This document shows positions 3,395 through 25,210 of a stretch of DNA of 25,260 bases, piece by piece. The notes under the pieces were generated by a model. It did not search any database and was not told the DNA's origin. It saw only the letters and a program-made list of their open reading frames with translations. The position numbers were made by a program, and so were the translations under genes. Source of the stretch: a virus; the IMG/VR virus record IMGVR_UViG_3300023296_001674; one strand, 5' to 3'. Within the stretch, counting starts at the first letter, position 1. Each line of letters starts with the position of its first letter.

Positions 3395-3464
3395 TATTGT
3401 ATGGTGTAGTGGTAACACGCTGCCTTTATCGGCGGAGCCGTGGGTTCGAGTCCTACTATGATAT
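3395..3464 (+). tRNA. tRNA-like element (AU-rich acceptor, D and T arms fold; anticodon loop irregular; no CCA), possible pseudogene
   Basis: Acceptor TATTGTA/TATGATA; D stem GTGT/ACAC; T arm GTGGG-TTCGAGT-CCTAC. Anticodon stem CTGCC/GGCGG leaves only a 6-nt loop. Confidence 0.3.
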
Positions 3465-3565
3465 TTGGATTACGTTCAGTGTGCACACCGAACGCCACAA
3501 ATTATCTGTTATTATCGCGATAGTGATAGATAATGTTGGGTCACTTAGTTATGATTAAAGTTTTT

Positions 3566-3790
3566 AGGGTGTTCGTCTAGTGGATTAGGACGCGCCGCCT
3601 TGGGTAGTTGGAGTTCGATTCTCCTTAGCAACGGTTACGTAAATCCGCACGGTGAGACATTGGTTCGAATCCAATACATGTTAAAATAACGATTTCACAT
3701 GAGATGTATAGTTTTAATGGATAAATCAGGCATGAGCCTTGTGCGGCAAGATAGTGGGTTCGATTCCCCTTGCGTTGAATGTGAAATGAT
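3566..3790 (+). other. cluster of tRNA-derived remnants: three T-arm-like hairpins without complete cloverleaves
   Basis: T-arm-like hairpins: GGAG-TTCGATT-CTCC, ATTGG-TTCGAAT-CCAAT, GGG-TTCGATT-CCC. No matching acceptor stems or anticodon arms found by hand. Confidence 0.3.
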
Positions 3791-3822
3791 GCTATATTGG
3801 TTTTTTAATATAGGAGATAATA

Positions 3823-4377
3823 ATGGAACTAGAAACATATCTTAAAGATTATGGCTTAACTGATGATATTATACGTTATGCTATATTCACTGGTACATTA
3901 ACCAAATATAGTATTTCAGATTGGCGTGTTATATGTTATATAATCGACGATCCTGATTTAGATCGTGAAACAAAAGTAGCCATGATTGAAAAAGCATTTA
4001 AAGATGATAAATGGCGTGCCAAAGAATTATTTGTTTTTATTGAAACATTAAATCAATTTGTAAAAGCAGATGATATTCTTTCAGGGGCACACGAAAAAGA
4101 TTCATGGGGAAAAGGTACACCATCTGAGCAATTTGCCATATCAGTGTCGCTCTGTGAAGCACTTAAAAAAATGAAAACCGAAAATAAATTAAACAGCGAT
4201 GAACAAATTGATGTTTTTGACCGATTTGTTGTATACATTATGGATATGTTTTCACCCGAAATGGTTGTGTTGACATTCAGACATGCTATCAAACAATATG
4301 GTATAAAATTCGATATACATAAACATTCCGAATTTAAAAAAGCAATGAAAGCATATAATCGTATAATATTAGCATGA
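3823..4377 (+). CDS. hypothetical protein (184 aa)
   Basis: SD TAGGAGA upstream; TGA stop overlaps the next start (ATGA). Confidence 0.65.
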   Translation: MELETYLKDYGLTDDIIRYAIFTGTLTKYSISDWRVICYIIDDPDLDRETKVAMIEKAFKDDKWRAKELFVFIETLNQFVKADDILSGAHEKDSWGKGTPSEQFAISVSLCEALKKMKTENKLNSDEQIDVFDRFVVYIMDMFSPEMVVLTFRHAIKQYGIKFDIHKHSEFKKAMKAYNRIILA

Positions 4378-4679
4378 AAGCATATAAATTATTCAAAAAA
4401 CGAAAAGATGGTTCAATTGGACCACTTTTCATTAATGCCAAAATGCGTATACCATTAAATGTGTGGCTGGATGCTGAAGATCATCCAACCAAAGGTTATG
4501 CACATAGACCAGGATGGCATGCTGGCGCTGAACCAAATGCACCACACCTAAGTGAAAAAGGACGCGTTTGGTATGAAGTAGAAATAAAAGACTTTGTGAC
4601 ATTTAAACGACCCATCAATCAAGGTGGTGAATGGTTGATTGCACAAAAAATCAAAGTGATAGGTGAATATCACAAATAA
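4374..4679 (+). CDS. hypothetical protein (101 aa)
   Basis: Translationally coupled start (ATGA overlap). Confidence 0.6.
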   Translation: MKAYKLFKKRKDGSIGPLFINAKMRIPLNVWLDAEDHPTKGYAHRPGWHAGAEPNAPHLSEKGRVWYEVEIKDFVTFKRPINQGGEWLIAQKIKVIGEYHK

Positions 4680-4682
4680 TAT

Positions 4683-4757
4683 GGACCGGTAACTCAGAGG
4701 CAGAGTGTTCGCCTTTTAAGCGAAACGTCGGGATTTCGAAATTCCCCCGGTCTACCA
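4683..4757 (+). tRNA. tRNA-Lys (anticodon UUU), CCA encoded
   Basis: Acceptor GGACCGG/CCGGTCT (G1·U72); D ACTC/GAGT; anticodon stem TTCGC/GCGAA, loop CTTTTAA. T arm GGGAT-TTCGAAA-TTCCC has a U53·U61 mismatch. A73, CCA. Confidence 0.75.
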
Positions 4758-4766
4758 ATCACTTAT

Positions 4767-4841
4767 GCACGATAGATAACTGGGGTTACGACGGCTTTTA
4801 CATGGCTGTTGTGGTGGGTTCGATTCCCACATCGTGTACCA
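4767..4841 (+). tRNA. tRNA-Val-like (anticodon UAC), short D arm, CCA encoded
   Basis: Acceptor GCACGAT/ATCGTGT; T arm GTGGG-TTCGATT-CCCAC; anticodon stem CGGCT/GGCTG with loop TTTACAT. D arm TAAC-TGGG-GTTA is non-standard. Confidence 0.5.
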
Positions 4842-4852
4842 ATACAATATAT

Positions 4853-4927
4853 GGACCGGTAGCTCAGAGGCAGAGCGTTCGCCTCTTAAGCGAAATGTCG
4901 AGATTTCGAAATTCTCCCGGTCTACCA
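4853..4927 (+). tRNA. tRNA-Lys (anticodon CUU), CCA encoded
   Basis: Paralog of 4683-4757; loop CTCTTAA. Compensatory D-stem (GCTC/GAGC) and T-stem (GAGAT/TTCTC) changes. Confidence 0.75.
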
Positions 4928-4936
4928 ATACCTTAT

Positions 4937-5011
4937 GCTCGATAGATAACTGGGGTTACGACGGCTTTAACATAGCTGTTGTGGTGGGTTCGATTCCCAC
5001 ATCGAGTACCA
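4937..5011 (+). tRNA. tRNA-Val-like (anticodon AAC), CCA encoded
   Basis: Paralog of 4767-4841; acceptor GCTCGAT/ATCGAGT (compensatory). Loop TTAACAT, with the closing pair changed from U·G to U·A. Confidence 0.5.
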
Positions 5012-5094
5012 ATATTTTTGATACACATAATGGTTTAGTGTATTGATAAACCGGCTGTGGGTGAAGCGGTATAACAAATGTCTACCCCCAATAT

Positions 5095-5169
5095 GGTCGT
5101 GTAGCTCAAAGGCAGAGCATTCGCTTTACATGCGAAAGGTTGTGATATCGTAATTCACCACGACTACCA
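5095..5169 (+). tRNA. tRNA-Val (anticodon UAC), CCA encoded
   Basis: Acceptor GGTCGTG/CACGACT; D GCTC/GAGC; anticodon stem TTCGC/GCGAA, loop TTTACAT. T arm GTGAT-ATCGTAA-TTCAC has a U53·U61 mismatch. Body related to the Lys genes. Confidence 0.6.
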
Positions 5170-5224
5170 ATATTGCTTTTTAGTTGTATAGTATGCTATT
5201 ATTGTTTTTTATAGGAGATATATA

Positions 5225-5617
5225 ATGGAATATGCATGGAATGATAAAATAGTTGAAGCGAATTTTAATTTTGATTCTGCGTATGAACATACGGAATGGG
5301 GATGTGATGATGGATATACATCATTATCGGTGTTGATTAATCGATGCCAAAATATGATAAAACTAAGATACACAAATGTTAATCGCATCCCGCCAAAAGT
5401 GCCTATGCCGATAACGCCGTGGTCGTTTGTTCTTGATGACATAGATATAGTAGTATATATGACATTGCGGTGCTATGATATATTTCTTATGGACACAAAA
5501 ACGTTTGATTATAGGCAGCATTTTACTATTAAAATCGATGACGATATGGATGATAATATAATAATAGTGTCATCTGTTGATAATGTATATACAGAAGCAA
5601 TAAGAATTCTAAAATAA
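5225..5617 (+). CDS. hypothetical protein (130 aa)
   Basis: SD TAGGAGA 7 nt upstream. Confidence 0.6.
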   Translation: MEYAWNDKIVEANFNFDSAYEHTEWGCDDGYTSLSVLINRCQNMIKLRYTNVNRIPPKVPMPITPWSFVLDDIDIVVYMTLRCYDIFLMDTKTFDYRQHFTIKIDDDMDDNIIIVSSVDNVYTEAIRILK

Positions 5618-5653
5618 TATCTAACGCAGTGCTAATCACATAAGCCGTTATTT

Positions 5654-5728
5654 GCAGGGGTAGCTCAGTGGTAGAGCGGTTGGTTGAAGCCCAGCGCGTG
5701 AGGAGTTCGATTCTCTTTCCCTGCACCA
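5654..5728 (+). tRNA. tRNA-Phe (anticodon GAA), CCA encoded
   Basis: Acceptor GCAGGGG/TCCCTGC; D GCTC-AGTGGTA-GAGC; anticodon stem GTTGG/CCAGC, loop TTGAAGC; T arm AGGAG-TTCGATT-CTCTT. Confidence 0.75.
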
Positions 5729-5740
5729 ATACAATAATAT

Positions 5741-5816
5741 GGAACCCAGGTATATCTGGTGAGTACGCGTGGTTGAAGTTCACGAGGACGCAGTTCGATC
5801 CTGCGGGGTTCCACCA
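5741..5816 (+). tRNA. tRNA with anticodon GAA (second Phe-like isoacceptor), CCA encoded
   Basis: Acceptor GGAACCC/GGGTTCC; anticodon stem CGTGG/TCACG, loop TTGAAGT; T arm CGCAG-TTCGATC-CTGCG. Confidence 0.6.
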
Positions 5817-5831
5817 ATCAAAGACCATTAT

Positions 5832-5906
5832 GGACCGTAGGTGTAATGGCTGCATCCGAGCCTTTTAAGCTCAGGGGACAGAGTTCGATTCTCTGATGGT
5901 CTACCA
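5832..5906 (+). tRNA. tRNA-Lys (anticodon UUU) paralog, CCA encoded
   Basis: Acceptor GGACCGT/ATGGTCT; D GTGT/GCAT; anticodon loop CTTTTAA on stem (C)GAGC/GCTC(A); T arm CAGAG-TTCGATT-CTCTG. Confidence 0.6.
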
Positions 5907-5915
5907 ATAATCAAT

Positions 5916-5991
5916 GCCGTATTAGTGACACTGGCTAACACGCCTGTTTTGTAATCAGGAAAATGGGGATCGATACCTCAATATGGCACCA
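5916..5991 (+). tRNA. tRNA-Thr (anticodon UGU), CCA encoded; T loop ATCGATA
   Basis: Acceptor GCCGTAT/ATATGGC; anticodon stem CCTGT/TCAGG, loop TTTGTAA; T arm TGGGG-ATCGATA-CCTCA. Confidence 0.55.
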
Positions 5992-6008
5992 ATAAATAAT
6001 ACTATAGA

Positions 6009-6083
6009 GCCTCTGTAGTTAATCTGGTATAACGGTAGATTTGTAATCTTCAATGCGCGGTTCGAGTCCGTGTGGAGGCACCA
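6009..6083 (+). tRNA. tRNA-Thr (anticodon UGU), second copy; CCA encoded
   Basis: Acceptor GCCTCTG/TGGAGGC; D GTTA-ATCTGGTA-TAAC; anticodon loop TTTGTAA; T arm CGCGG-TTCGAGT-CCGTG. Confidence 0.6.
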
Positions 6084-6089: not shown

Positions 6090-6854
6090 TTAATCATTGT
6101 GTAGTTGCGTTTTTTCATATTCATCGACATCAAGTTTTAATTGTTTATATGTGATAGATGATGTATTACGTTTTTTTACATTATCTTTCTGAAGCATTAT
6201 TTCACAATTTAATGGATGTGTAATATAATATGGATCATACTTGTTAACAATTGATTCATTTATAGATATTTTATGATCCCTCGCTACACCGTTTGAATTT
6301 TTCTTTGGGACATACCAACCATGTTTTTTTATTAAATCTAAATTGAGTAGATTGGGATAATCATTGACATCAAATTTGAAATAATATGGACGTTTCGTAG
6401 TTTGAAGTTCTTTTGCTGTTCTACCATATTGTTCAACGCAGCATTGACATTTTGATATATACCGATCTTTGGCGGTGAAAAGTGTAATACAGGTGGAGCA
6501 AGTTCTAAACCATACCATGGAATATTCACCATCGATATATTTTTTTAGTTTATCCCATCTTTTTGGATAATGACCAATATCTTTTATGATTTTGATATGA
6601 CTTTTACTCATTCGTTCTTTAGTTTCATTGCTATGTTTGCGACGGCTATTATTATATTTGGCGGCACAAGATTGATTACAATATTTCTTTTTTATAAGTG
6701 CTTCATCGTATGACCATGATTTGCCGCATTGGTTGCATGTTTTTGGATTTTTATTATATTCGGCAATGCGATGGTTTTTTTGATTTATTTGCGTTTTTCG
6801 TGAAGCTATAAATCCTAATTTACCAGCTTCAGATTTGGACAATTTACATGTCAT
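6090..6854 (-). CDS. HNH-family homing-endonuclease-like protein with N-terminal Cys-rich (CxxC…CxxSC) motifs; paralog 1 of 4
   Basis: 254 aa. C-terminal block …GVARDHKISINESIVNKYDPYYITHPLNCEIMLQKDNVKK shared with ORFs 8344, 11473 and 14027. Embedded in the tRNA array. Confidence 0.75.
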   Translation of the reverse strand: MTCKLSKSEAGKLGFIASRKTQINQKNHRIAEYNKNPKTCNQCGKSWSYDEALIKKKYCNQSCAAKYNNSRRKHSNETKERMSKSHIKIIKDIGHYPKRWDKLKKYIDGEYSMVWFRTCSTCITLFTAKDRYISKCQCCVEQYGRTAKELQTTKRPYYFKFDVNDYPNLLNLDLIKKHGWYVPKKNSNGVARDHKISINESIVNKYDPYYITHPLNCEIMLQKDNVKKRNTSSITYKQLKLDVDEYEKTQLHND

Positions 6855-6967: not shown

Positions 6968-7061
6968 GTCGGATTTCCCTAACTGGTGTGGGTAGAATCC
7001 ATAATATGCACTGGGTGATCCTTATGTGCTGCACGTGGTTCGATTCCACGATCCGGCTCCA
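6968..7061 (+). tRNA. tRNA-like, 94 nt (class-II-like length), CCA encoded; anticodon arm not resolved
   Basis: Acceptor GTCGGAT/ATCCGGC; 3-bp D stem CCC/GGG; T arm CGTGG-TTCGATT-CCACG; T73, CCA. Confidence 0.3.
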
Positions 7062-7103
7062 ATTAATTTTGTTCAATTAAATTCGAATCACTGATTGAAC
7101 AAT

Positions 7104-7199
7104 TGCTCATCCGGCGGGTTACATGAGCCACGCCATAACGGATTGAAATGAGCCATGCCGTTGGGTATGGATATCAGGAGTTTCGGTGATGAGCTACCA
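7104..7199 (+). pseudogene. tRNA-like remnant with 3' …ATGAGCT-A-CCA; internal 12-nt direct repeat (ATGAGCCACGCC / ATGAGCCATGCC)
   Basis: 5' TGCTCAT pairs with the 3' end, but no canonical T loop or anticodon arm. Confidence 0.2.
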
Positions 7200-7307
7200 A
7201 TTAACTAAGGTGAACGGTAGTAACCTTTAATGTGCGGCAGTGGTGCAATTCCCTAACTGATTGAGTTCGACTCTCATTCGGGTCTAGATGACAAAACATT
7301 ATAATAT

Positions 7308-7391
7308 GGACGGTGATGTTAAGACTATGGCTGGGCCAGCGCAAGCCTCTTAAGCTTGTATAAAAGAGTTCGATTCTCTCACCGTCTTCCA
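7308..7391 (+). tRNA. aberrant Lys-like tRNA (anticodon loop CTCTTAA = CUU) with ~9 extra nt in the D region; CCA encoded
   Basis: Acceptor GGACGGT/ACCGTCT; anticodon stem CAAGC/GCTTG; T arm (A)AGAG-TTCGATT-CTCT(C). 27 nt between acceptor and anticodon stem. Confidence 0.35.
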
Positions 7392-7457
7392 ATTATGCAG
7401 GCCATAGATGTTCCCTTTGTCCATTATTGGGAACTGTGGATGAAAACAAAAACGAAA

Positions 7458-7527
7458 GCAGGGTTAATGGACTGTGTGTAAGTTTTGTGATTAAAAGGGA
7501 TGGTGCAAATCCAATTCCCCTGCGCCA
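7458..7527 (+). pseudogene. degenerate tRNA-like element sharing the GCAGGG…CCCTGC-G-CCA acceptor of the Phe-type genes
   Basis: Acceptor and CCA present; T arm weak (GGG/CCA); no resolvable anticodon arm. Confidence 0.25.
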
Positions 7528-7531
7528 AATT

Positions 7532-7604
7532 TGTTTGATCGTCTTTGGAATACAAGATACCGTTGTCGAAGGCGGAGACGTTGGTTCGAATCCAACTTGA
7601 ACAC
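7532..7604 (+). pseudogene. Asp-like tRNA pseudogene (loop GTCGAA region), no CCA
   Basis: Acceptor TGTTTGA/TTGAACA (two G·U pairs); D GTCT/AGAT; T arm GTTGG-TTCGAAT-CCAAC. Anticodon stem CCGTT/GGCGG leaves only a 6-nt loop. Confidence 0.35.
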
Positions 7605-7693
7605 TTATTGTTAGTAATGATTTTATGTACATAAATGATTTGCTAGGCGAAAGCCAATAGTTTGCTGGTTCTATTTCTTAAAAATCCTCTTAT

Positions 7694-7770
7694 GGTAGGT
7701 GTAGTGTTAACGGTTAGCACGTCAGACTGTGACTCTGAAAGTGCCGGTTCAAATCCGGTCATTTACCCCA
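7694..7770 (+). tRNA. tRNA-His (anticodon GUG) with encoded G-1 and C73; CCA encoded
   Basis: G-1, acceptor GTAGGTG/CATTTAC; D GTGT/GCAC; anticodon stem TCAGA/TCTGA, loop CTGTGAC; T arm GCCGG-TTCAAAT-CCGGT; C73-CCA. Confidence 0.8.
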
Positions 7771-7854
7771 AATTTAATGCTGCTTGAGTTCAGGGTTCCA
7801 AGTAGATATTGTGGCTAAACCTAGCCGGTTCTAGCGTGATAATAAATTTTTAAT
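7771..7854 (+). other. structured spacer with multiple hairpins (GGCTA-AAC-TAGCC; CTTG…CAAG), possible tRNA remnant or small RNA
   Basis: No cloverleaf recoverable; several short palindromes. Confidence 0.2.
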
Positions 7855-7930
7855 GGCTACGTAGTAATCTGGGATTACGGTGCACTGTCGATGCACGTCG
7901 AGGAGGGTTCAATTCCCTTCGTAGCCGCCA
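7855..7930 (+). tRNA. tRNA-Asp (anticodon GUC), CCA encoded
   Basis: Acceptor GGCTACG/CGTAGCC; D GTAA-TCTGGGA-TTAC; anticodon stem GTGCA/TGCAC, loop CTGTCGA; T arm GAGGG-TTCAATT-CCCTT; G73. Confidence 0.85.
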
Positions 7931-7932
7931 AT

Positions 7933-8004
7933 ACCCCAGCCGATGCATTCGGACTCGAGTTTTCGAAACTTGACGGGAAGGTTTGATTCCTTCTTGGGGT
8001 GCCA
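7933..8004 (+). tRNA. tRNA-Arg (anticodon UCG) with atypical architecture (D hairpin directly after acceptor; T loop TTTGATT); CCA encoded
   Basis: Acceptor ACCCCAG/TTGGGGT; hairpin CCGA-TGCAT-TCGG; anticodon stem CGAGT/ACTTG, loop TTTCGAA; T arm GAAGG-TTTGATT-CCTTC. Confidence 0.55.
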
Positions 8005-8028
8005 ATTTAAAGAACGAGGGTGTAAACC

Positions 8029-8076
8029 GGTAGGAACTTACGTTGAACGGGATTTGCGGCAAAACCTACTTGCCAA
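8029..8076 (+). other. tRNA-like mini-element: GGTAGG…CCTACTT-G-CCA without D/T arms; the GGTAGGAA…CCTACT motif is also present at 3229-3250
   Basis: 6-bp terminal helix and an encoded CCA-like end; the internal ~35 nt lack a T loop. Confidence 0.2.
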
Positions 8077-8120
8077 TTAACCTGTGATTTTAATAGTCGG
8101 TAGCACCCCGCAGAAATAAT

Positions 8121-8195
8121 GGTCTATTCGTATAGTGGCTAATACACCGGATTGTCGATCCGGGAACGAGAGTTCAATTCTCTCATAGACCGCCA
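8121..8195 (+). tRNA. tRNA-Asp (anticodon GUC), second copy; CCA encoded
   Basis: Acceptor GGTCTAT/ATAGACC; D GTAT-AGTGGCTA-ATAC; anticodon stem CCGGA/TCCGG, loop TTGTCGA; T arm GAGAG-TTCAATT-CTCTC. Confidence 0.8.
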
Positions 8196-8200
8196 ATTAA

Positions 8201-8278
8201 GGCCCATCGGTCCAGCATGGAGTGGACATTTCCCTGTCACGGAAAAGATCACCGGTTCAAGTCCGGTATGGGTCGCCA
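8201..8278 (+). tRNA. tRNA with anticodon GUC (third Asp-type), 10-nt D loop; CCA encoded
   Basis: Acceptor GGCCCAT/ATGGGTC; D GTCC/GGAC; anticodon stem TTTCC/GGAAA, loop CTGTCAC; T arm ACCGG-TTCAAGT-CCGGT. Confidence 0.7.
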
Positions 8279-8286
8279 AAATTCAA

Positions 8287-8362
8287 TTCAGATGACCAAG
8301 CAAGTGAACGGGACCGCCTGTTAAGCGGATATTGCAGGGAGCGTTACCCTGATCTGGAGCCA
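8287..8362 (+). tRNA. tRNA-Asn (anticodon GUU) with non-canonical T loop AGCGTTA; CCA encoded
   Basis: Acceptor TTCAGAT/ATCTGGA; anticodon stem (A)CCGC/GCGG(A), loop CTGTTAA; T stem CAGGG/CCCTG perfect but loop lacks TTC; weak D stem. Confidence 0.5.
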
Positions 8363-8991
8363 ATAACTTTATATTTTTTGTCCCATTCATTTATTCGATG
8401 GTATAAATCATATAATGATAAACTTGAATGACGATTTTTAGATGAATTTTCTGGCTGTGGCATTATCTTGCAGTTCGCTGGATGTGATATATGATTTGGG
8501 TCTATTTTGTTTACAAATCCATCATGTACACTATACATGTGATCTCTTGTTAATCCGTTTTTATTTTTGGTACTATGATACATGCCCTGTTGATGTATCA
8601 TTATAAAATCAAATTCTTCTGGAAATGTTTGAAATGAAAATATAAATTTACATTGTTCTTTATATTTTATCTTCTCAATCATGTATTCTTGTGGTGTCAC
8701 CCTCATGGCATTTGTGCAAGTAACTGCACAACTTCTTCCGCAATAATATTCACGAGTTCCGGTTATAGGGCTAAATTTATTATTACATGTTGGATTTTTA
8801 CACTCGATTAGTCGTTTTTGATATTTTGTTAAATTTTTTACCGATATTTCTTTTTTGGTGAATATGCAACTACATGTAATATGTGATATTTTACCGTTGC
8901 TTTTGCCATGCATACGTGAATGACCATTCAATGCCATTAAGGATTTAAATTGATTATCGCATATATTACATGTATAAATATCTTTAGACAT
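8344..8991 (-). CDS. HNH-family homing-endonuclease-like protein with N-terminal C2H2 zinc finger (CNICDNQFKSLMALNGHSRMH); paralog 2 of 4
   Basis: Start trimmed to the Met at 8989-8991, which has a strong SD (GGAGG 6 nt upstream on minus strand). The ORF-track extension to 9204 runs through the plus-strand tRNA at 9081-9166. C-terminal HNH block shared with paralogs. Confidence 0.75.
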   Translation of the reverse strand: MSKDIYTCNICDNQFKSLMALNGHSRMHGKSNGKISHITCSCIFTKKEISVKNLTKYQKRLIECKNPTCNNKFSPITGTREYYCGRSCAVTCTNAMRVTPQEYMIEKIKYKEQCKFIFSFQTFPEEFDFIMIHQQGMYHSTKNKNGLTRDHMYSVHDGFVNKIDPNHISHPANCKIMPQPENSSKNRHSSLSLYDLYHRINEWDKKYKVIGSRSG

Positions 8992-9080: not shown

Positions 9081-9166
9081 TCGGATATAGGAGAATTGGT
9101 AGACCCAGAAGATTGTTAATCTTCCGCAGCAATGCATTCCAGGTTCGAGTCCTGGTATCCGAGCCA
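9081..9166 (+). tRNA. class-II (long variable arm) tRNA with Leu-like D loop (GAATTGGTAGAC), G73 and anticodon GUU (Asn codons); CCA encoded
   Basis: Acceptor TCGGATA/TATCCGA perfect; anticodon stem GAAGA/TCTTC perfect, loop TTGTTAA; variable arm 14 nt (GCA-GCAA-TGC); T arm CCAGG-TTCGAGT-CCTGG; G73-CCA. Confidence 0.55.
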
Positions 9167-9215
9167 ATAACACCGTAGCGTAGAAAATAGTTACTTCGTT
9201 TCACTCACGACTGGA

Positions 9216-9275
9216 ATGGGTTCGATTCCCATGCCCTGCGTAAGCAGGGTTTAGTGTAATGGTAGCACAGTATAT
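9216..9275 (+). other. permuted tRNA fragments: T-arm + 3' acceptor (ATGGG-TTCGATT-CCCAT-GCCCTGC) followed by GTAA and a 5' tRNA half (GCAGGGT-TT-AGTG-TAATGGTAG-CAC); the acceptor halves form a terminator-like hairpin
   Basis: CCCTGC-GTAA-GCAGGG hairpin followed by TTT; neither fragment has its partner half. Confidence 0.35.
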
Positions 9276-9684: not shown

Positions 9685-9759
<75 letters not shown>

Positions 9760-9849: not shown

Positions 9850-9923
9850 AGGGGTATCGTATAGTGGTAATACGGTGGATTCCAAACTCACAGACCGGGG
9901 TTCGATCCCTCGTTCCCCTGCCA
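9850..9923 (+). tRNA. tRNA-Trp (anticodon CCA), CCA encoded
   Basis: Acceptor AGGGGTA/TTCCCCT; D GTAT/ATAC; anticodon stem GTGGA/CTCAC, loop TTCCAAA; T arm CGGGG-TTCGATC-CCTCG. Confidence 0.7.
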
Positions 9924-11228: not shown

Positions 11229-11498
11229 ATGGATAATAGTACATTAATAGCGTTAGGAAGTTTGTTGTTTGCCATGATTGGTGGATTTTGGGGTGTCATA
11301 ACATACATCCTTGGAATCATCAAGGTGGAAAACGTTGAACGTCGTGGTGTCCAAGAAAAATTATATATGCGCGATGATGTAGCCAAAGATGTAATGAACG
11401 AAAGTTTAACAGAAGTAAAAAGTACCATCCGTGATACGAATGATAGACTCATACGTGTAGAAACAATATTATATGAAAGAACTGATAGAACAAAATAA
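11229..11498 (+). CDS. small membrane protein (N-terminal TM helix plus charged coiled-coil tail), 89 aa
   Basis: Hydrophobic segment LIALGSLLFAMIGGFWGVITYILGII followed by a charged tail; overlaps the next gene start. Confidence 0.5.
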   Translation: MDNSTLIALGSLLFAMIGGFWGVITYILGIIKVENVERRGVQEKLYMRDDVAKDVMNESLTEVKSTIRDTNDRLIRVETILYERTDRTK

Positions 11499-13479: not shown

Positions 13480-13484
13480 ATTAT

Positions 13485-17171: not shown

Positions 17172-17225
17172 TTCCTCTTTCGTATAGTGGTTATGATCTT
17201 TGTGTCGCAATCAGAGGACGATTTT
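17172..17225 (+). pseudogene. truncated paralog of the tRNA at 17331 (5' two-thirds; T arm replaced by TTTTTTG)
   Basis: TCGTATAGTGGTTATGATCTTTGTGTCGCAATCAGAGGACG matches 17338-17378 with a few substitutions; preceded by the hairpin GGTGT…ACACC. Confidence 0.3.
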
Positions 17226-17241
17226 TTGTGGAGGCAATTAT

Positions 17242-17325
17242 GCGCGTAGCCGGTATGTTGGTACTACCACTGGTCTTCCAAACCAGCGCGAAAGCATTGG
17301 GGTTTGATTCCCCCTACCCGCTCCA
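17242..17325 (+). tRNA. tRNA-Gly (anticodon UCC) with an 11-nt variable arm (84 nt); Gly-family acceptor; CCA encoded
   Basis: Acceptor GCGCGTA/TACCCGC-T-CCA; D GGTA/TACC; anticodon stem CTGGT/ACCAG perfect, loop CTTCCAA; variable CGCGAAAGCAT; T arm (T)GGGG-TTTGATT-CCCC(C). Confidence 0.6.
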
Positions 17326-17330
17326 ATCAA

Positions 17331-17405
17331 GCCCCATTCGTATAGTGGTCATTATCTCTGTGTCGTACTCAGAGGACGGCAGTTCGATTCCGCCATGGGG
17401 CACCA
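17331..17405 (+). tRNA. tRNA-Thr-like (anticodon CGU if the loop is 7 nt; loop region could be 9 nt), CCA encoded
   Basis: Acceptor GCCCCAT/ATGGGGC perfect; D GTAT/(T)TAT; anticodon stem CTCTG/CAGAG with TGTCGTACT between; T arm GGCAG-TTCGATT-CCGCC. Confidence 0.55.
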
Positions 17406-20279: not shown

Positions 20280-20328
20280 TAAAATATAGACAAACACTTC
20301 GTTTGGGTGTATAAATATAGAATAATAT

Positions 20329-20436
20329 TTCCAAGTAGCTCAGATGGTAGAGCGTCTGACTGTGGAACAGATGAGCCTAAAGCTTTGAAGTTCAAATTTA
20401 ATCAGAATGTCGGCGGTTCGATCCCGTCCTTGGAAG
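20329..20436 (+). tRNA. aberrant tRNA-like gene, 108 nt, no CCA: canonical 5' half and T arm separated by a ~39-nt insertion after the anticodon arm
   Basis: Acceptor TTCCAAG/CTTGGAA perfect; D GCTC-AGATGGTA-GAGC; anticodon-like stem TCTGA/(A)CAGA with loop CTGTGGA (GUG); insert contains TTGAA-G-TTCAA; T arm GGCGG-TTCGATC-CCGTC. Confidence 0.35.
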
Positions 20437-20439
20437 CAA

Positions 20440-20575
20440 ATAAAAGTTTTAGGTCGTTCAATAAGCCATGTTTAGCGGCATGGTTAGGACAAGCGGGTAT
20501 AACCGCTAAATGGTATGCTGCAATCGGGGTTAACACTTATTGCAACGAGGTGAAAATCCACCCATAGAAATCAAT
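20440..20575 (+). ncRNA. highly structured spacer (candidate small RNA): hairpins CCATG-TTTAGCGG-CATGG and GCGG-GTATAA-CCGC
   Basis: Dense local complementarity; ORF 20307-20567 is discounted because it overlaps tRNA-like sequence. Confidence 0.25.
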
Positions 20576-20667
20576 GCCTCGGTAGCTCAGAAAAGCAACG
20601 TAAGTTGTAGTGTAGTAGCAGGTGACTGAACCTCACCGTGTCGGTAGTTCGAATCTATCCTGGGGCA
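20576..20667 (+). tRNA. aberrant tRNA-like gene, 92 nt, no CCA: ~20 extra nt in the D region
   Basis: Acceptor GCCTCGG/CTGGGGC; 5' D stem GCTC with no partner; anticodon-like stem GGTGA/TCACC with loop CTGAACC (GAA); T arm GGTAG-TTCGAAT-CTATC. Confidence 0.35.
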
Positions 20668-20711
20668 CAAATAATACAAAGGAAGATAACAATATCAAGT
20701 GAATAACATAT

Positions 20712-20787
20712 AGTTCCGTAGCTCAGTGGATAGAGCGCAACTTTGCGAAAGTTGAAGTCGGTGGTTCGATCCCACTCGGGACTGCCA
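20712..20787 (+). tRNA. tRNA-Arg (anticodon GCG) with canonical body (CCGTAGCTCAGTGGATAGAG… resembles the E. coli Arg-ACG body), CCA encoded
   Basis: Acceptor AGTTCCG/CGGGACT; D GCTC-AGTGGATA-GAGC; anticodon stem CAACT/AGTTG perfect, loop TTGCGAA; T arm GGTGG-TTCGATC-CCACT. Confidence 0.75.
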
Positions 20788-20806: not shown

Positions 20807-21307
20807 ATGATCAGATTTTTTGATTACGAAGCAAGTGGATTGGACGCCGAGTCTTATCCTATTCAAGTTGCTTGGTGTGATGTGAATGGTGTTGGCGAAT
20901 CGCATTACATTATACCAAAAGATGAATGGACATATTGGGATTTTCACGCACAACGAGATGTGCATCATATTTCCAGAAGTATGCTTTATGAACAAGGAAA
21001 GCCAGTTGAAATAATCATTGAATTAATGGAAAAGGCATTGATGTGCCGTGATGTATATTGCGATGGTGGTCACTTAGATGAACATTGGCATGAACAGTTA
21101 TATGGTGATAACACCCCAACATTTTGGCTGAATGATTATTTTGCTTTTTTATATGATGTTGTAGACCCATTTAACAGAAAACCTAAATTACCGCATTTCT
21201 ATACAGAAGTGCGTGCCGCTGCTAGATTAGAATGTCCACCTACGCATGATGCCTTGGCTGATTGCCAATTTCTTGCTACTGGATATAGATTAGCAAAAGC
21301 GTTATAA
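20807..21307 (+). CDS. DEDDh-family 3'-5' exonuclease (DnaQ/RNase T-like)
   Basis: Exo motif I FFDYEASGL (D-x-E) and Exo III HDALADCQF (H-x4-D); 166 aa. Confidence 0.65.
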   Translation: MIRFFDYEASGLDAESYPIQVAWCDVNGVGESHYIIPKDEWTYWDFHAQRDVHHISRSMLYEQGKPVEIIIELMEKALMCRDVYCDGGHLDEHWHEQLYGDNTPTFWLNDYFAFLYDVVDPFNRKPKLPHFYTEVRAAARLECPPTHDALADCQFLATGYRLAKAL

Positions 21308-21310: not shown

Positions 21311-21383
21311 TGCCTCCGCCGCTGGGTCGGAGTTGGGACTTCTAATCCCAAACTGGATGAGTTCGATTCTCTCCGGGGGCACC
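21311..21383 (+). tRNA. tRNA-Arg (anticodon UCU) with the atypical Arg-family D architecture; CCA encoded
   Basis: Acceptor GCCTCCG/CGGGGGC; hairpin CCG-CTGGGT-CGG; anticodon stem TGGGA/TCCCA perfect, loop CTTCTAA; T stem only 3 bp. Confidence 0.65.
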
Positions 21384-21391
21384 AATATTTC

Positions 21392-21449: not shown

Positions 21450-21689
21450 ATGTCTAAAAAAGCAAAAAGAGAAAACGCGGCAAAACTTATTGCTGAAAAA
21501 GTAACTGCTGCTGAAAATTTAATCAAAGACGCAGAAAAAATCGCAAATAAGTATGGTTTAAGTTTTCGCCACAGTGTTGCATATGGCATGGGTGGCGAAT
21601 ATGAAGGTGACAAAAATTTACGAACAGATCGTTGGGGCGACGCTGATCCAGCAGAAGATGGATGGAGTCCTAGTTCACATAGTTGTTAA
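21450..21689 (+). CDS. small acidic protein, tandem paralog 1 of 3 (C-terminal …DGWSPSSHSC)
   Basis: SD AAGGAG; shares VAYGMGGEYEGD and the C-terminal DGWSPSS motif with paralog 2. Confidence 0.55.
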   Translation: MSKKAKRENAAKLIAEKVTAAENLIKDAEKIANKYGLSFRHSVAYGMGGEYEGDKNLRTDRWGDADPAEDGWSPSSHSC

Positions 21690-21698
21690 GGAGATAAA

Positions 21699-21929
21699 AT
21701 GGCAGATAAAATGACAAACGAAGAAGCAGCAAAGGCGATTTCTGAAAAAGTTTCAGAAGCATATGCTGCTATCAATGCAGCAGAATCAATAGCCGATGAA
21801 TATAAATTGGACTTTAATTTTAGTGTCGCATATGGCATGGGTGGTTATTATAACGGCGATCCAGAAGACCGCGACGACGATGATGATGAAATGAATGATG
21901 GATGGAGTCCTAGTTCACAGGGCTGCTAA
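21699..21929 (+). CDS. small acidic protein, tandem paralog 2 of 3 (…PEDRDDDDDEMNDGWSPSSQGC)
   Basis: SD TAAGGAG; paralog of 21450. Confidence 0.55.
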   Translation: MADKMTNEEAAKAISEKVSEAYAAINAAESIADEYKLDFNFSVAYGMGGYYNGDPEDRDDDDDEMNDGWSPSSQGC

Positions 21930-21945
21930 CAAACGGGATTAAGCG

Positions 21946-22176
21946 ATGACTGAATTTACAATGGAACAAGCTGCGCATGTTATTGCGTTAAATGTCGAAA
22001 AGATTAACAAACTGGCACAAGAAACTAAAAATCTTGCTAATGAGCATGGATTAGAGTTTGAATTACAATTGGGTGATACTACTGATGCGCCCTTGCAGTT
22101 TGACGAGAATTGGGATTCTAGCGACTGTGGTTATGATGACCCACCGCATTGGGATTCATCCGACTGTGAGTATTGA
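21946..22176 (+). CDS. small acidic protein, tandem paralog 3 of 3 (repeated WDSSDC(G/E)Y C-terminal motif)
   Basis: Same length class and acidic C-terminus with duplicated W-D-S-S-D-C motif. Confidence 0.5.
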   Translation: MTEFTMEQAAHVIALNVEKINKLAQETKNLANEHGLEFELQLGDTTDAPLQFDENWDSSDCGYDDPPHWDSSDCEY

Positions 22177-23352: not shown

Positions 23353-23561
23353 TGAGAGATATAAATCGCATACCAGAAATTCTAGAGGCAATATATAATG
23401 CTTGGACTATTAATACTGAGTGTAGATTGGGACAAGTGCTTAATAATTCAATTCTTGGCAATCAGAGATTGGTTGATATTGAAGATGAGGAATTGCTTAA
23501 GGGGTTGAATGATTATTATGATAAATTAAATTTTAAGACGCATACAAAGGGTGACGTTTAG
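23352..23561 (+). CDS. hypothetical protein (69 aa), TAG stop
   Basis: ATGA-coupled start; SD AAGGGA. Confidence 0.5.
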   Translation: MRDINRIPEILEAIYNAWTINTECRLGQVLNNSILGNQRLVDIEDEELLKGLNDYYDKLNFKTHTKGDV

Positions 23562-23565
23562 GACG

Positions 23566-23712
23566 TTAGTCTGGGGGCAGTATAACTAGCACATCAGATA
23601 CCTGTATGTAAGGGTCATTTCAAGGAATGGCTGTTGACGCAGTATTCCGAAGAGAACGACGGTTGGTTGTAGGGCTGATACTGCCTGATGGGTTCGATTC
23701 CCGCTGTGTCAC
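23566..23712 (+). ncRNA. structured RNA with a tRNA-like T arm: long-range helix GGCAGTAT(23575-23582)/ATACTGCC(23677-23684) abutting TGGG-TTCGATT-CCCG
   Basis: Lies between CDS 23352-23561 and the HisRS-like gene; has no acceptor or CCA end, so it is not a standard tRNA. Confidence 0.3.
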
Positions 23713-23740
23713 TAATTAATGTAACAAAAGGAGAAAGACA

Positions 23741-24368
23741 ATGCTTAGAGGAACACGTTTGATGACTGGTGCGGAAGCATCTACATACACGAACACTGTT
23801 GACACACTACGGAGGTGTCTTCATCGATAATAATGTCGAAGAAGTTATAGTTCCGTCGTTATGGGAACAGCAGACATTTATTGATAAAGCAGGAAGTGAA
23901 ATTGTAAATCAGATGTGGGCATTTGAAGATAAGAAAAATCGCCCCGTATGTTTGATACCAGAAGTTACTGGTGTTATACAAGAAATGTGGCGCGATGATT
24001 GGAGTAAATCCAAACCAAAGCCATATTCTATTTTTTATGTGAATCGTTGTTATCGTTATGAACGACCACAGAAGGGTAGATATAGAGAATTCACACAAAT
24101 CGGATTAGAAATTCTTGGTGATACATCAGGGAATGATTACGATATGGCAATTAATTTATTGCAAAAGTGTCTCGATTGTTTTACTATAGATTATAAACTT
24201 ACAGAAACGGTACAACGCGGTTTGGCGTATTATGTTGATGATGGGTTTGAAGTCGAATGTGAGAAGTTGGGCGCACAGAAGCAAATTGCTGGTGGTGGTC
24301 GATACAATGAAGGTATTGGTTGGGCTATCGGCGTTGATAGATTAATATTGGGGATTGATGATGACTAG
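23741..24368 (+). CDS. miniaturised histidyl-tRNA-synthetase-like protein (class II motifs 2 and 3) requiring a +1 frameshift near 23804-23812, or a frameshifted pseudogene
   Basis: Frame A (ATG 23741, SD AAAGGAGAAAG) encodes MLRGTRLMTGAEASTYTNTVDTL (compare HisRS …[23 protein letters not shown]) and stops at 23828. Frame B (+1, open from 23769) encodes …YGGVF…MWAFEDKKNRPVCLIPEVTG…CYRYERPQKGRYREFTQIG…IAGGGRYNEGIGWAIGVDRL. No anticodon-binding domain. Confidence 0.55.
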
Positions 24369-24774
24369 TTTACACCTTATTACTTCACCGCGTGAATATG
24401 TGACAACTATGACACATAACTCGGATTATCTTCAGTCTTGCAAGACTAATAAACCATCATGGAAAAAAGCGGATCGTTCATTTCATACACTCGAAAATGG
24501 TGACAAATTATTTAATGTGTACTATGATAATGGTAAATTATGCGTGCAAAGATGGTATCAAAAAAGTGCTAAAATTGAATCTAATGATCTTCATCGATTG
24601 GATGGTCCAGCATATATATCTTATTATGAAAATGGCATGTATTATCGATCTTCGTGGTGGATCAATGGAAATTCTATTTCAGGCAAAGTGATGCGATCAT
24701 GGTTAAAAGAAAATAATATTTCTTCGCCATATTCAGATGAAGATCAAATGGCAATAATATTAAGGTGGGGATGA
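24355..24774 (+). CDS. hypothetical protein (139 aa) with repeated Gly/Tyr/Trp-rich motifs
   Basis: Start overlaps the upstream stop; TGA stop. Confidence 0.5.
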   Translation: MMMTSLHLITSPREYVTTMTHNSDYLQSCKTNKPSWKKADRSFHTLENGDKLFNVYYDNGKLCVQRWYQKSAKIESNDLHRLDGPAYISYYENGMYYRSSWWINGNSISGKVMRSWLKENNISSPYSDEDQMAIILRWG

Positions 24775-24962
24775 AAACTGATATATCATCAGATGATGAA
24801 AAAGAATTGATGTATTATATTAAAATGTATAGTCTTGGTTTTCATGGCGCAATTAATTTATTGCGATCTGATGGTATGTTAGAATATTTGGTTGATACTG
24901 AAACAGTTAAGTTAGATATTTTAACACACGCAATAGCGAAGAAAATACGTGATACTAAATAA
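24765..24962 (+). CDS. hypothetical protein (65 aa)
   Basis: SD GGTGGGG; overlaps the upstream gene by 10 nt. Confidence 0.45.
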   Translation: MGMKTDISSDDEKELMYYIKMYSLGFHGAINLLRSDGMLEYLVDTETVKLDILTHAIAKKIRDTK

Positions 24963-24966
24963 CAAT

Positions 24967-25043
24967 GGGCGATTAATCTGGCGAAAATAGGGGTAAAAGG
25001 TGAAGCTCCCCCTTCAGGCGGGTTCAATTCCACGCATCGTCCA
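24967..25043 (+). tRNA. tRNA-like element, no CCA; anticodon loop only 6 nt (CTCCCC); T stem with bulged A
   Basis: Acceptor GGGCGAT/ATCGTCC; stem TGAAG/CTTCA; T region GCGGG-TTCAATT-CC-A-CGC. Confidence 0.3.
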
Positions 25044-25055
25044 CAAATACCCTAT

Positions 25056-25128
25056 GGCTGGGGTGCTAGGAACACAGTTGTCCTTCATATGGATAATGCG
25101 CAGGGGGCGGAACCCTGACCAGCTACCA
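25056..25128 (+). tRNA. tRNA with anticodon CAU (Met/fMet or lysidine-Ile type), non-canonical T loop GGCGGAA; CCA encoded
   Basis: Acceptor GGCTGGG/ACCAGCT (6 bp); anticodon stem TGTCC/GGATA, loop TTCATAT; T stem CAGGG/CCCTG perfect. Confidence 0.55.
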
Positions 25129-25135
25129 ATACCAT

Positions 25136-25210
25136 GCTCTTGTAACATAATGGCTAATGTGAGCGTCTCATAAACGTTTGAAGAAGGTTCGATTCCTTCC
25201 TGGAGTACCA
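25136..25210 (+). tRNA. tRNA with anticodon CAU (Met/fMet or lysidine-Ile type), canonical arms; CCA encoded
   Basis: Acceptor GCTCTTG/CTGGAGT; D ACAT-AATGGCTA-ATGT; anticodon stem AGCGT/ACGTT, loop CTCATAA; T arm GAAGG-TTCGATT-CCTTC. Confidence 0.7.

Follow-up and report, generated by a model that had tools for sequence, protein, structure and literature searches.

The 25,260-nucleotide viral sequence analysed here (IMG/VR record IMGVR_UViG_3300023296_001674, hereafter the window) contains a tRNA island of about 22 kb (21.8 kb), in which some 30 working-looking tRNA genes and about 15 odd tRNA-like RNAs are interspersed with four genes of a predicted HNH-type endonuclease family. Several anticodons are carried by two or three genes that differ strongly in sequence, segments of the island have been duplicated, relatives of the endonuclease genes lie in other tRNA arrays, and some of the odd variants are conserved. 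We consider it probable that the island is an endonuclease-associated block of tRNA genes in birth-and-death turnover, which would make its phage less dependent on the host for decoding and whose divergent copies would serve as insurance against defence systems. All features are listed in Table 1.

Different detection methods agree on the size of the array. All 27 tRNA genes that ARAGORN calls by default lie on the + strand, beginning with 3394-3465 and ending with 25136-25210; a threshold lowered to 90% brings the number to 36. With the Rfam model RF00005, 26 elements reach the gathering score when fast filters are used and 29 when the filters are sensitive, and the two tools give the same anticodons. 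A covariance model trained on 18 of the window's own tRNAs and run with filters off (E<=1) gives 51 hits within 3394-25210, 50 of them on the + strand; chance matches would be split evenly between strands, so even the weak hits are not due to chance. A scan for a T arm plus acceptor stem recovers about 44 elements, and an RNAalifold cloverleaf of 18 tRNAs has compensatory changes at 20 of 20 pairs. An earlier note on the window, which had called about 30 canonical tRNAs and about 15 degenerate elements by hand over 3395-25210, was accurate in both count and span. We examined 42.5 kb in all (the window plus 9.4 kb upstream and 7.8 kb downstream), and the flanks hold no tRNA genes, so 3394 and 25210 are the real limits of the array.

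Besides a CUA suppressor, the model-supported set has 20 anticodons, which serve 13 amino acids. Asp GUC is present three times, and Lys UUU, Val UAC, Phe GAA, Thr UGU, Gly GCC, Ile GAU, and Gly UCC twice each (both Gly UCC genes being aberrant); Lys CUU, Val AAC, Thr GGU, and Thr CGU contribute further anticodons to multi-gene families, and His GUG, Asn GUU, Trp CCA, Cys GCA, Arg GCG, Arg UCU, and CAU occur once. Extra copies of an anticodon already present make up 7 of the 27 default ARAGORN calls (26%). Most families in the earlier note are reproduced: Asp GUC x3 with one pseudogene (7532-7604), Thr UGU x2 with GGU and CGU, Gly GCC x2 and UCC x2, Ile GAU x2, and Val UAC x2 with AAC. Its ranges for Lys (UUU x2, CUU x1-2) and Phe (GAA x2-3) resolve into one CUU gene plus an aberrant CUU element (7308-7391) and two Phe genes plus an aberrant one (20576-20668). 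Arg GCG and UCU stand, Arg UCG and a second GCG were not reproduced, and there is one CAU gene where two Met genes had been listed. That list lacked a second Trp CCA gene (12852-12938) and a second His-GUG-like element (20329-20437), as well as the CUA suppressor (13766-13843).

Copies that share an anticodon are only distantly alike. Measured as pairwise global identity within the window, the pairs are 62% (Phe GAA), 53% (Ile GAU), 58% (Val UAC), 60% (Lys UUU), and 63% (Thr UGU) identical, and the three Asp GUC pairs 54-68%; this range of 53-68% compares with a median of 56% over all window tRNA pairs. Judged by these identities, most same-anticodon paralogs appear barely more alike than random pairs, and common ancestry within the array is not shown for them. 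The only recent pairs are the Lys and Val genes of the 166-nt tandem unit (4679-4844 and 4849-5014; 93%), and both pairs differ in anticodon (UUU/CUU and UAC/AAC), so these recent duplicates added no redundancy. The Val UAC gene at 5095 has its D arm, anticodon stem, and T stem in common with the Lys pair (75% identity) and is most simply read as a Lys-type body that switched amino-acid identity. The Ile GAU gene at 12318 is 67% identical to that Val gene, and both have an unusual T loop (A54, T58). The four Gly genes form a real family (61-82% identity), and a copy of the 5' part of Thr CGU sits 158 nt upstream of the intact gene.

In-array duplication has thus occurred, but to judge from these alignments it mostly yields new anticodons or remnants, and the deeply divergent same-anticodon copies could stem from old duplication or from import. 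The earlier note's proposal that the families arose by repeated duplication inside the array holds for the Lys-Val unit, the Gly family, Val 5095, and the Thr copy, but not for most same-anticodon pairs. The shared acceptor stems that it cited are weak evidence of common descent, because the shared ends (GCC...GGC-A in Thr, G73 in Asp, U73 in Gly, and A73 in Lys) are largely what we take to be aminoacylation identity elements. Some paralogs differ in the anticodon loop, i.e., CUGUCAC vs CUGUCGA and UUGUCGA for Asp (positions 37/38), and CUGAUAA vs CCGAUAA for Ile. Unusual loop bases are also found elsewhere: C33 in Ile GAU 12222-12296 and Thr GGU 14826-14900, G32 in Thr CGU 17331-17405, and A at 54 with T at 58 in the T loops of Val 5095-5169 and Ile 12318-12391.

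The four endonuclease-like open reading frames (ORFs) are paralogs that match phrog_23051 (annotated as "unknown function") with E=1e-28 to 1e-36, and more weakly match endonuclease VII and HNH families. Their alignment has shared zinc-ribbon cysteines and an invariant R-D-H...S...N...H..N-C...N..K motif. A Foldseek search of the endonuclease model against the PDB gave nothing significant, a profile search of PDB sequences gave 0 hits, and none of the four ORFs matches a GIY-YIG (SegB) homolog. The distance from an endonuclease gene to the nearest tRNA or tRNA-like element on either side ranges from 5 nt to >100 nt; paralog 4, for example, starts 5 nt past a tRNA-Gly and ends 8 nt ahead of tRNA-Thr GGU. 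The genomes of Vibrio phage 2.275.O (349 kb) and Cronobacter phage GAP32 (359 kb) have homologs that are also located between tRNA genes. Neither of the tRNA-holding segmental repeats (the 166-nt Lys-Val unit and the partial Thr copy) abuts an endonuclease gene.

The association with tRNAs was quantified in IMG/VR loci, each consisting of the gene plus up to 6 kb on either side, with relatives of the window's DUF7275 gene as the control. All 80 of the 80 loci with HNH-type relatives (L016-L095) contain tRNAs, 961 in 0.90 Mb, compared with 22 of 80 control loci and 82 tRNAs in 0.93 Mb (Fisher p=2.6e-25; ~12-fold more tRNAs). A tRNA lies within 150 nt of the endonuclease gene in 55 of the 80 loci. 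The phrog_23051 family, earlier without a functional annotation, is thus practically confined to tRNA arrays. Of the 36 loci that have a tRNA at most 300 nt upstream, 23 have Ala UGC there, which looks like a site preference and suggests subfamily-specific insertion sites. By analogy with SegB, the endonuclease genes may be selfish elements.

Redundancy is less exceptional than the earlier note held, since 39 of 52 endonuclease-associated IMG/VR arrays with at least 10 tRNAs have a duplicated anticodon (CAU included). Extra copies average 13% of genes in these arrays; the 26% of the window is above this mean but within the range, with several arrays at 25-42%. The divergence also recurs: over 60 distinct pairs that share an anticodon other than CAU, the median identity is 61%, with 80% of the pairs under 70% and 5% above 90%. 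On this sequence comparison, large phage arrays in general contain such divergent pairs, and accounts of phage tRNAs by codon compensation only must explain them. The anticodons UGG, GUC, UUC, UAC, and UAA are recurrently duplicated elsewhere, and no triple copy of a non-CAU anticodon (as for Asp GUC here) is present among the 40 largest arrays listed. The 961 tRNAs of other arrays include 5 CUA suppressors, 1 Val AAC, 1 Arg GCG, and 92 (~10%) class I tRNAs with long variable arms (>=80 nt). Val AAC and Arg GCG are uncommon anticodons in bacteria and phages alike. We considered whether the long-variable-arm Asn, Trp, and Gly tRNAs of the window are Ser/Leu "allo-tRNAs" and rejected this as the main reading, as their discriminators fit the anticodon (under the identity rules that we assume, G73 for Asn and Trp and U73 for Gly) and class I tRNAs of this kind make up about a tenth of those elsewhere.

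The aberrant elements are of more than one kind. The earlier note had called them degenerate, truncated, or insertion-bearing. Decay is the right reading for the clear remnants marked in Table 1, but several others are conserved or have compensatory changes, so not all of them are products of decay; both decay and conserved structured RNAs are present. One case is the tRNA-Gly(UCC) with a ~97-nt insertion, which together with the following endonuclease gene forms a module (window 13851-14818) that recurs at 1202-2162 of L096, a relative whose endonuclease is 62% identical in protein to paralog 4. The two modules are 73.5% identical over 933 nt, with 100% identity over the 39 nt at the 3' end of the tRNA. 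The three hairpins of the insertion are kept in L096; of the 46 pairs in the whole structure, 3 have changed on both sides, two of these inside the insertion. The exon edges ...CUUCC / AAGCUG... are invariant, the first and last bases of the insertion differ between window and L096, and the joined exons would read CUUCCAA, which is the loop of the other Gly UCC gene. L096 has another Gly UCC gene with a variable-arm mini-hairpin CC-GUAA-GG (GC-GAAA-GC at the corresponding place in the window), and it likewise has Thr UGU x2, GGU, and CGU, so both the Thr redundancy and the variant structure are conserved. Among 50,697 phage records, megablast found no match to the full window, and a distant blastn of 4683-6083 gave generic tRNA similarity only.

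Group I and bulge-helix-bulge introns do not appear to account for the insertions. No Rfam intron or ribozyme matches at E<=1, and insertions of 35-97 nt are too short for group I introns, judging by known examples. A bulge-helix-bulge intron was rejected because no anticodon-intron helix was seen by eye at the junctions. ARAGORN's intron mode is unsuitable as an intron census here, as it chains halves of neighbouring tRNAs in dense arrays.

Two further RNAs (7933-8004 and 13330-13400) lack an anticodon: 24 of 24 pairs form in both, 5 of them changed on both sides, and their similarity suggests derivation from an Arg-UCU-like body. A DNA-pattern scan of IMG/VR for this RNA gave 0 hits, and a covariance model run on 80 other arrays gave no homologs, just generic tRNA matches of at most 38 bits. 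The element at 3702-3778 is possibly a third anticodon-less tRNA-like RNA.

Directly after the second anticodon-less copy, 13401-13545 can be read in the order T arm, 7-bp acceptor hairpin (7/7 paired) around G-CCA-AUUAU, D arm, and a terminal helix that can close. It matches RF02553 over model positions 24-84 with 32.4 bits, against a gathering score of 69, and its fold has a z-score of -1.66. The Ro-binding motif GNCGAAN0-1G was not seen by eye in its terminal strands, and a DNA-pattern scan of IMG/VR for the YrlA-like module gave 0 hits. YrlA Y RNAs act with Ro60, and that of M. smegmatis is cut by RNase P and receives CCA, but dimeric tRNAs can mimic YrlA and give false positives (Chen et al. 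2014, PMC4201824). Our element resembles YrlA in its permuted T arm-acceptor hairpin-D arm order, its terminal helix, its 7-bp acceptor stem, and a TROVE (Ro60-like) gene on the same contig. It differs in its score (32 vs 69 bits), in the motif, and in that the TROVE gene is ~15 kb upstream and split: its halves (L002 6037-6789, with E=4e-16 to residues 8-238 of PDB 9kop, and 7832-8281) are separated near residue 238/240 by an inserted 317-aa ORF (DUF7487). We therefore treat 13401-13545 as a candidate Y RNA only.

Some smaller observations concern the odd elements. Those at 20329-20437 and 20576-20668 end in N-CAA-ATA rather than N-CCA-ATA, the 138-nt spacer between them folds better than shuffled sequence (z=-2.41), and an 86-aa ORF at 20307-20567 that overlaps the His- and Phe-like elements is probably spurious. 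The ~640 nt of 7061-7700 have no convincing + strand ORF and are packed with tRNA-like pieces (7170-7290; 7308-7391; 7458-7530, with T loop TGCAAAT and end G-CCA-AAT; and 7532-7604).

We propose the following mechanism for the island. The co-oriented, dense tRNA genes would be expressed as long precursors, with 5' ends generated by RNase P and 3' ends by shortening of AU-rich trailers to the encoded CCA. Bacterial tRNAs mature in this way: RNase P favours U at -1, and trailers rich in A and U are cut back to a CCA that is encoded. An N-CCA end is encoded in 34 elements, with A(-2)T(-1) ahead of 27 and AT after 32 (ATA 20, ATT 8, ATC 4), and L096 has similar flanks (AT before the tRNA, AT and then A, T, or C after its CCA); we read these as putative processing signals. 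The array would grow (i) by local segmental duplication followed by anticodon change within or between amino acids and (ii) by mosaic gain or exchange of tRNA segments, promoted by the activity of the free-standing HNH-type homing endonuclease genes, and would lose members (iii) by decay into remnants. A phage with its own IF3, L7/L12-like protein, AspRS, and HisRS-like core would depend less on the host tRNA pool for decoding. With two or three divergent tRNAs per anticodon, some with altered loops, no single tRNA-cleaving defence or recognition requirement would remove decoding, and divergent decoders would also insure against differences between hosts.

Some observations weigh against this explanation. 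As the earlier note had found, Leu, Ser, Tyr, Glu, Gln, Pro, and Ala tRNAs are absent from the island, and these amino acids take up ~36% of codons. Both Lys UUU genes have identical anticodon loops, as do both Thr UGU genes. No capsid, terminase, or other virion gene lies within the 42.5 kb, and because of this the word phage rests on homologs and on the size of the contigs described below (up to 570,750 bp).

One alternative is that the island serves codon usage and gene dosage only: it would supplement the tRNAs that read the favoured codons of an AT-rich phage, and its extra copies would do no more than raise dosage. The phage has 36% G+C and prefers A/U-ending codons, and among the amino acids represented the multi-copy ones are indeed common (Lys 8.5%, Ile 7.9%, Asp 7.2%, Gly 5.9%, Val 5.8%, Thr 5.6%). 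However, identical copies would serve dosage, whereas the actual copies are 53-68% identical, and heavily used codons have no island tRNA (GAA 569, UAU 400, and UUA+UUG 507 of 10,265). For AUA (384, the commonest Ile codon), the only candidate readers are the CAU gene, whose identity is undecided, and a defective UAU-like element, yet readers of rare codons are present (CGU for ACG and CUU for AAG). We therefore think a pure dosage role quite unlikely. It is also rather unlikely, in our view, that the extra copies are a functionless by-product of selfish endonucleases and replication slippage, which would duplicate and import tRNA segments faster than deletion removes them where genome size is little constrained, even though many elements are decayed or truncated, some lack a CCA end, and the analogy with SegB would make the endonuclease genes selfish. 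Intact duplicates keep their cloverleaves and presumed identity elements despite 35-45% divergence, odd variants are kept with compensatory changes in a relative or between paralogs, and the anticodons GUC, UGG, UUC, UAC, and UAA have been duplicated repeatedly in other arrays. The conserved and compensated structures fit this reading poorly, although it may hold for part of the redundancy.

The DNA could also be non-viral, i.e., a long tRNA array from a bacterium or plasmid. Arrays of up to 43 genes occur in cyanobacteria, Firmicutes, and mycobacteria (PMC8421152), and the lack of virion genes within 42.5 kb would fit. This is nonetheless very improbable given the PHROG matches, the hundreds of phage-record homologs, the IMG/VR relatives, and a gene content that presumably fits huge phages, and the nearest arrays with the same endonuclease lie in jumbo phages. 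The chance that the array is an artefact of hand-calling is negligible: although Arg UCG, the second Arg GCG, and the second Met were not reproduced, 29 elements reach the Rfam gathering score, the tools agree on the anticodons, and the set remains redundant (7 of 27 extra copies). Turnover of an endonuclease-associated block, with a probable decoding benefit, is the explanation we favour.

Jumbo and huge phages with large tRNA arrays have been described before: surveys report up to 70 tRNAs, the cluster C1 mycobacteriophage Rizal has 36, and Xanthomonas phage XacN1 has 29 tRNA-like sequences per terminal repeat, including 2 CUA suppressors and a pseudogene (PMC5852040, PMC13037316, PMC10264068). 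The island resembles such clusters in having dozens of tRNAs in one region, unlike host tRNAs, and a CUA suppressor without detectable recoding. However, the 26 canonical genes of XacN1 cover all 20 amino acids and those of the island only 13 (with 20 anticodons), and the island has more same-anticodon copies (26%) and a far larger aberrant share. Its CUA tRNA has U1:A72 and A73. Recoding of TAG (code 15) in the 42.5 kb was rejected, as TAG ends 10 of 64 genes and no ORFs merge on TAG read-through. A relative of the DUF7275 gene, L011, carries a different CUA tRNA.

Interrupted tRNAs have a precedent in the Lak megaphages (~540 kb), which have 30-35 tRNAs, some with conserved "enigmatic introns"; within one of these introns a further tRNA may be encoded (Devoto et al. 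2019, PMC6784885). Lak-like features here are the interrupted elements 13851-14022, 20329-20437, and 3566-3683, the last with a nested T-arm hairpin. Lak is of another lineage, with 26% G+C compared with 36% here and with TAG recoding, which is not seen here, and unlike in Lak the interrupted tRNA-Gly directly precedes an HNH gene and is conserved with it as a module in a relative. The closest precedent for the endonucleases is SegB, a GIY-YIG enzyme of T-even tRNA clusters that drives preferred inheritance of the tRNA region (PMC2330249). According to a 2026 paper, SegB is statistically associated with tRNAs and also drives tRNA segmental amplification against the tRNA-cleaving Septu, which cuts tRNA-Tyr in the variable loop (PMC13096335). 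Our genes are SegB-like in being free-standing between tRNAs and strongly associated with them, but they are HNH-like rather than GIY-YIG, number four paralogs in one array, and are predicted nucleases only.

PrrC, PARIS, and colicin E5 act on Lys, Asp, Asn, and His tRNAs. The island resembles tRNA sets that counter such defences (PrrC, VapC, colicins D/E5, PARIS, retron PtuAB, Septu) in its distinct paralogs, its loop differences (Asp, Ile, Thr), and its variable-arm hairpins, and this likeness goes no further than an analogy of function. Evasion of anticodon nucleases has been suggested as a role of phage tRNAs (PMC10264068, PMC11464382, PMC11555353).

The confinement of phrog_23051 to tRNA arrays extends the recent link between SegB and tRNA amplification to a second nuclease family and offers a testable driver of array assembly. 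A tRNA-array-bound HNH-type family, the generality of divergent pairs, and a module of interrupted tRNA-Gly and endonuclease together with tRNA mimics are new or little documented. The conserved odd RNAs, such as the interrupted tRNA-Gly, the class I tRNAs with variable-arm hairpins, and the anticodon-less mimics, may have new non-coding functions in phages or help them to evade tRNA-targeting immunity. A bolder proposal, which we regard as doubtful, is that phrog_23051 is a second, independent class of tRNA-array homing endonuclease that builds and diversifies islands, that Gly(UCC) plus endonuclease is a new kind of small mobile tRNA intervening sequence, and that the mimics are functional. 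If so, the ~97-nt insertion would disrupt the enzyme's own target (collaborative homing) and be removed by a route that is neither group I nor bulge-helix-bulge, and the anticodon-less and YrlA-like RNAs would be decoys for tRNA-targeting defences or partners of the Ro60-like protein.

Table 1. Features of the tRNA island and its neighbourhood (window positions unless a contig is named)
Feature	Position	Strand	Evidence or remark
tRNA-like, UAU in 6-nt loop, no CCA, first of array; clear remnant	3394-3465	+	ARAGORN; Rfam 46.9 bits
tRNA-like, ~45-nt anticodon-loop insertion with own T-arm-like hairpin, no CCA; clear remnant	3566-3683	+	Rfam 31.3 bits
tRNA-like, short hairpin replaces anticodon arm, no CCA; clear remnant	3702-3778	+	window model 21.9 bits
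Lys-Val tandem duplication, 166-nt unit	4679-5014 (4679-4844, 4849-5014)	+	93% identity; repeat family D6
tRNA-Lys UUU, CCA encoded	4683-4757	+	ARAGORN; Rfam 54.5 bits
tRNA-Val UAC, atypical D arm	4767-4841	+	ARAGORN 112.7; Rfam 27.1 bits (just under gathering); window model 35.2
tRNA-Lys CUU	4853-4927	+	ARAGORN, Rfam; 92% identity to Lys UUU 4683
tRNA-Val AAC (A34)	4937-5011	+	ARAGORN, window model; 95% identity to Val UAC 4767
tRNA-Val UAC	5095-5169	+	ARAGORN, Rfam; 75% identity to Lys CUU 4853
tRNA-Phe GAA	5654-5728	+	ARAGORN; Rfam 55 bits
tRNA-Phe GAA	5741-5816	+	ARAGORN; Rfam 45.1 bits; 62% identity to 5654 gene
tRNA-Lys UUU	5832-5906	+	ARAGORN, Rfam; 60% identity to 4683 gene
tRNA-Thr UGU, T loop ATCGATA	5916-5991	+	Rfam 43 bits; 79% identity to L096 Thr UGU
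tRNA-Thr UGU	6009-6083	+	ARAGORN, Rfam
HNH-type endonuclease paralog 1 (phrog_23051)	6090-6854	-	PHROG E=1.7e-36; alignment motif
tRNA-like RNA, 94 nt, 7/7 acceptor stem, T arm, T-CCA end, no clear anticodon	6968-7061	+	ARAGORN lowered threshold; weak tRNA-Sec match
Lys-CUU-like tRNA, expanded D region, T-CCA end	7308-7391	+	window model 31.9 bits
Asp-like pseudo-tRNA, loop TTGTCGA, no CCA; clear remnant	7532-7604	+	Rfam 25.7 bits; ARAGORN lowered threshold
tRNA-His GUG, encoded G-1 facing C73	7694-7770	+	ARAGORN, Rfam
tRNA-Asp GUC, loop CUGUCGA	7855-7930	+	ARAGORN, Rfam
Anticodon-less tRNA-like RNA, 8-bp stem + 3-nt loop, G-CCA end	7933-8004	+	folding, pair comparison
tRNA-Asp GUC, loop UUGUCGA	8121-8195	+	ARAGORN; Rfam 64 bits
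tRNA-Asp GUC, loop CUGUCAC	8201-8278	+	ARAGORN, Rfam
HNH-type endonuclease paralog 2, with C2H2 zinc finger	8344-8991	-	PHROG, alignment
tRNA-Asn GUU, 86 nt, variable-arm hairpin GCA-GCAA-UGC	9081-9166	+	ARAGORN; Rfam 48.6 bits
Degenerate tRNA-like, no CCA; clear remnant	9174-9241	+	window model 15.7 bits
tRNA-Gly GCC	9685-9758	+	ARAGORN, Rfam
tRNA-Trp CCA	9850-9923	+	ARAGORN, Rfam
HNH-type endonuclease paralog 3, 31 nt upstream of tRNA-Cys	11473-12108	+	PHROG, alignment
tRNA-Cys GCA	12140-12213	+	ARAGORN, Rfam
tRNA-Ile GAU, C33, loop CCGAUAA	12222-12296	+	ARAGORN, Rfam
tRNA-Ile GAU, T loop AGCGTAA	12318-12391	+	ARAGORN, Rfam; 53% identity to 12222 gene
tRNA-Gly GCC	12508-12581	+	ARAGORN, Rfam
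tRNA-Trp CCA, 87 nt, variable-arm hairpin	12852-12938	+	Rfam sensitive search, ARAGORN lowered threshold, window model
Second anticodon-less tRNA-like RNA	13330-13400	+	pairs kept vs 7933 copy; closest to tRNA-Arg UCU
Candidate YrlA-like Y RNA	13401-13545	+	Rfam RF02553 32.4 bits, E=3e-5, local search; folds
CUA amber-suppressor tRNA	13766-13843	+	ARAGORN; Rfam 57.1 bits
tRNA-Gly UCC, ~97-nt structured anticodon-loop insertion	13851-14022	+	Rfam 38.9 bits; conserved in L096
HNH-type endonuclease paralog 4	14027-14818	+	PHROG, alignment
tRNA-Thr GGU, C33	14826-14900	+	ARAGORN, Rfam
T-arm + ACCA; clear remnant	16611-16640	+	repeat family D5
L7/L12 C-terminal-domain protein	16800-17129		interleaved with tRNAs
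Partial copy of Thr CGU 5' part; clear remnant	17173-17233	+	85% identity over 17174-17220; repeat family D14
tRNA-Gly UCC, 84 nt, variable-arm hairpin GC-GAAA-GC	17242-17325	+	Rfam sensitive search, ARAGORN lowered threshold
tRNA-Thr CGU, loop GUCGUAC	17331-17405	+	ARAGORN, Rfam
His-GUG-like tRNA, 35-nt insertion at 37/38, G-CAA end	20329-20437	+	Rfam 54.1 bits
Phe-GAA-like tRNA, 25-nt D-loop insertion, C37, A-CAA end	20576-20668	+	Rfam 36.7 bits
tRNA-Arg GCG	20712-20787	+	ARAGORN; Rfam 62.5 bits
DEDD (RNase T-like) exonuclease	20807-21307		between both Arg tRNAs
tRNA-Arg UCU, compact D arm	21312-21384	+	ARAGORN score 103; window model
tRNA remnants; clear remnants	23636-23711, 24967-25043		window model, repeat search
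HisRS catalytic core, 199 aa, no anticodon-binding domain	23769-24368		hisS E=1.5e-38, under family cut-off
CAU-anticodon tRNA, elongator Met or Ile2, not initiator-like	25136-25210	+	ARAGORN, Rfam
AspRS, full-length	L001 16365-18179		7 kb downstream of island

The window very probably comes from a huge phage, for which a 570-kb contig is the most likely representative. Contigs of up to 570,750 bp in Logan, JGI, and ENA carry the window's proteins verbatim, and the two flanking pieces obtained (L001 and L002) agree with the window except for a single mismatch. The ORFs are short and densely packed, several in the window match PHROG families, and hundreds of phage records, as well as IMG/VR contigs, contain homologs of the DUF7275 gene, of a 101-aa ORF, and of the HNH family. 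Genes in the neighbourhood code for several translation proteins (IF3, an L7/L12 C-terminal-domain protein, a HisRS catalytic core, and a full AspRS) together with ClpX, the split TROVE protein, a DEDD (RNase T-like) exonuclease, thymidine kinase, a dual-specificity phosphatase, and a fatty-acid desaturase. Such content (IF3, L7/L12-like protein, tRNA synthetases, ClpX, thymidine kinase) is reportedly typical of huge phages, as Al-Shayeb et al. are said to have described in 2020. The AspRS gene lies 7 kb from an island that itself holds three Asp tRNAs.

Searches around individual genes added little to the comparison. A 408-aa ORF has no related loci in IMG/VR, and its best homologs are just 30% identical. 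Relatives of the DUF7275 gene (57-66% identity; L005-L008 and L011-L013) lie in contexts that have no homologous array and a single, unrelated CUA tRNA, and the context in Ralstonia phage RsoM2USA gave no useful comparison. In a promoter and terminator scan, promoter-like sites were not above their frequency in shuffled sequence, and the sole notable feature was a strong bidirectional terminator-like hairpin with a 14-bp stem (3072-3103), which precedes the array's first tRNA-like element closely and delimits the island on the left. Within the island, 21450-22176 holds three tandem paralogous small ORFs (76-79 aa) whose C-terminal ends are conserved (repeat families D13 and D16).

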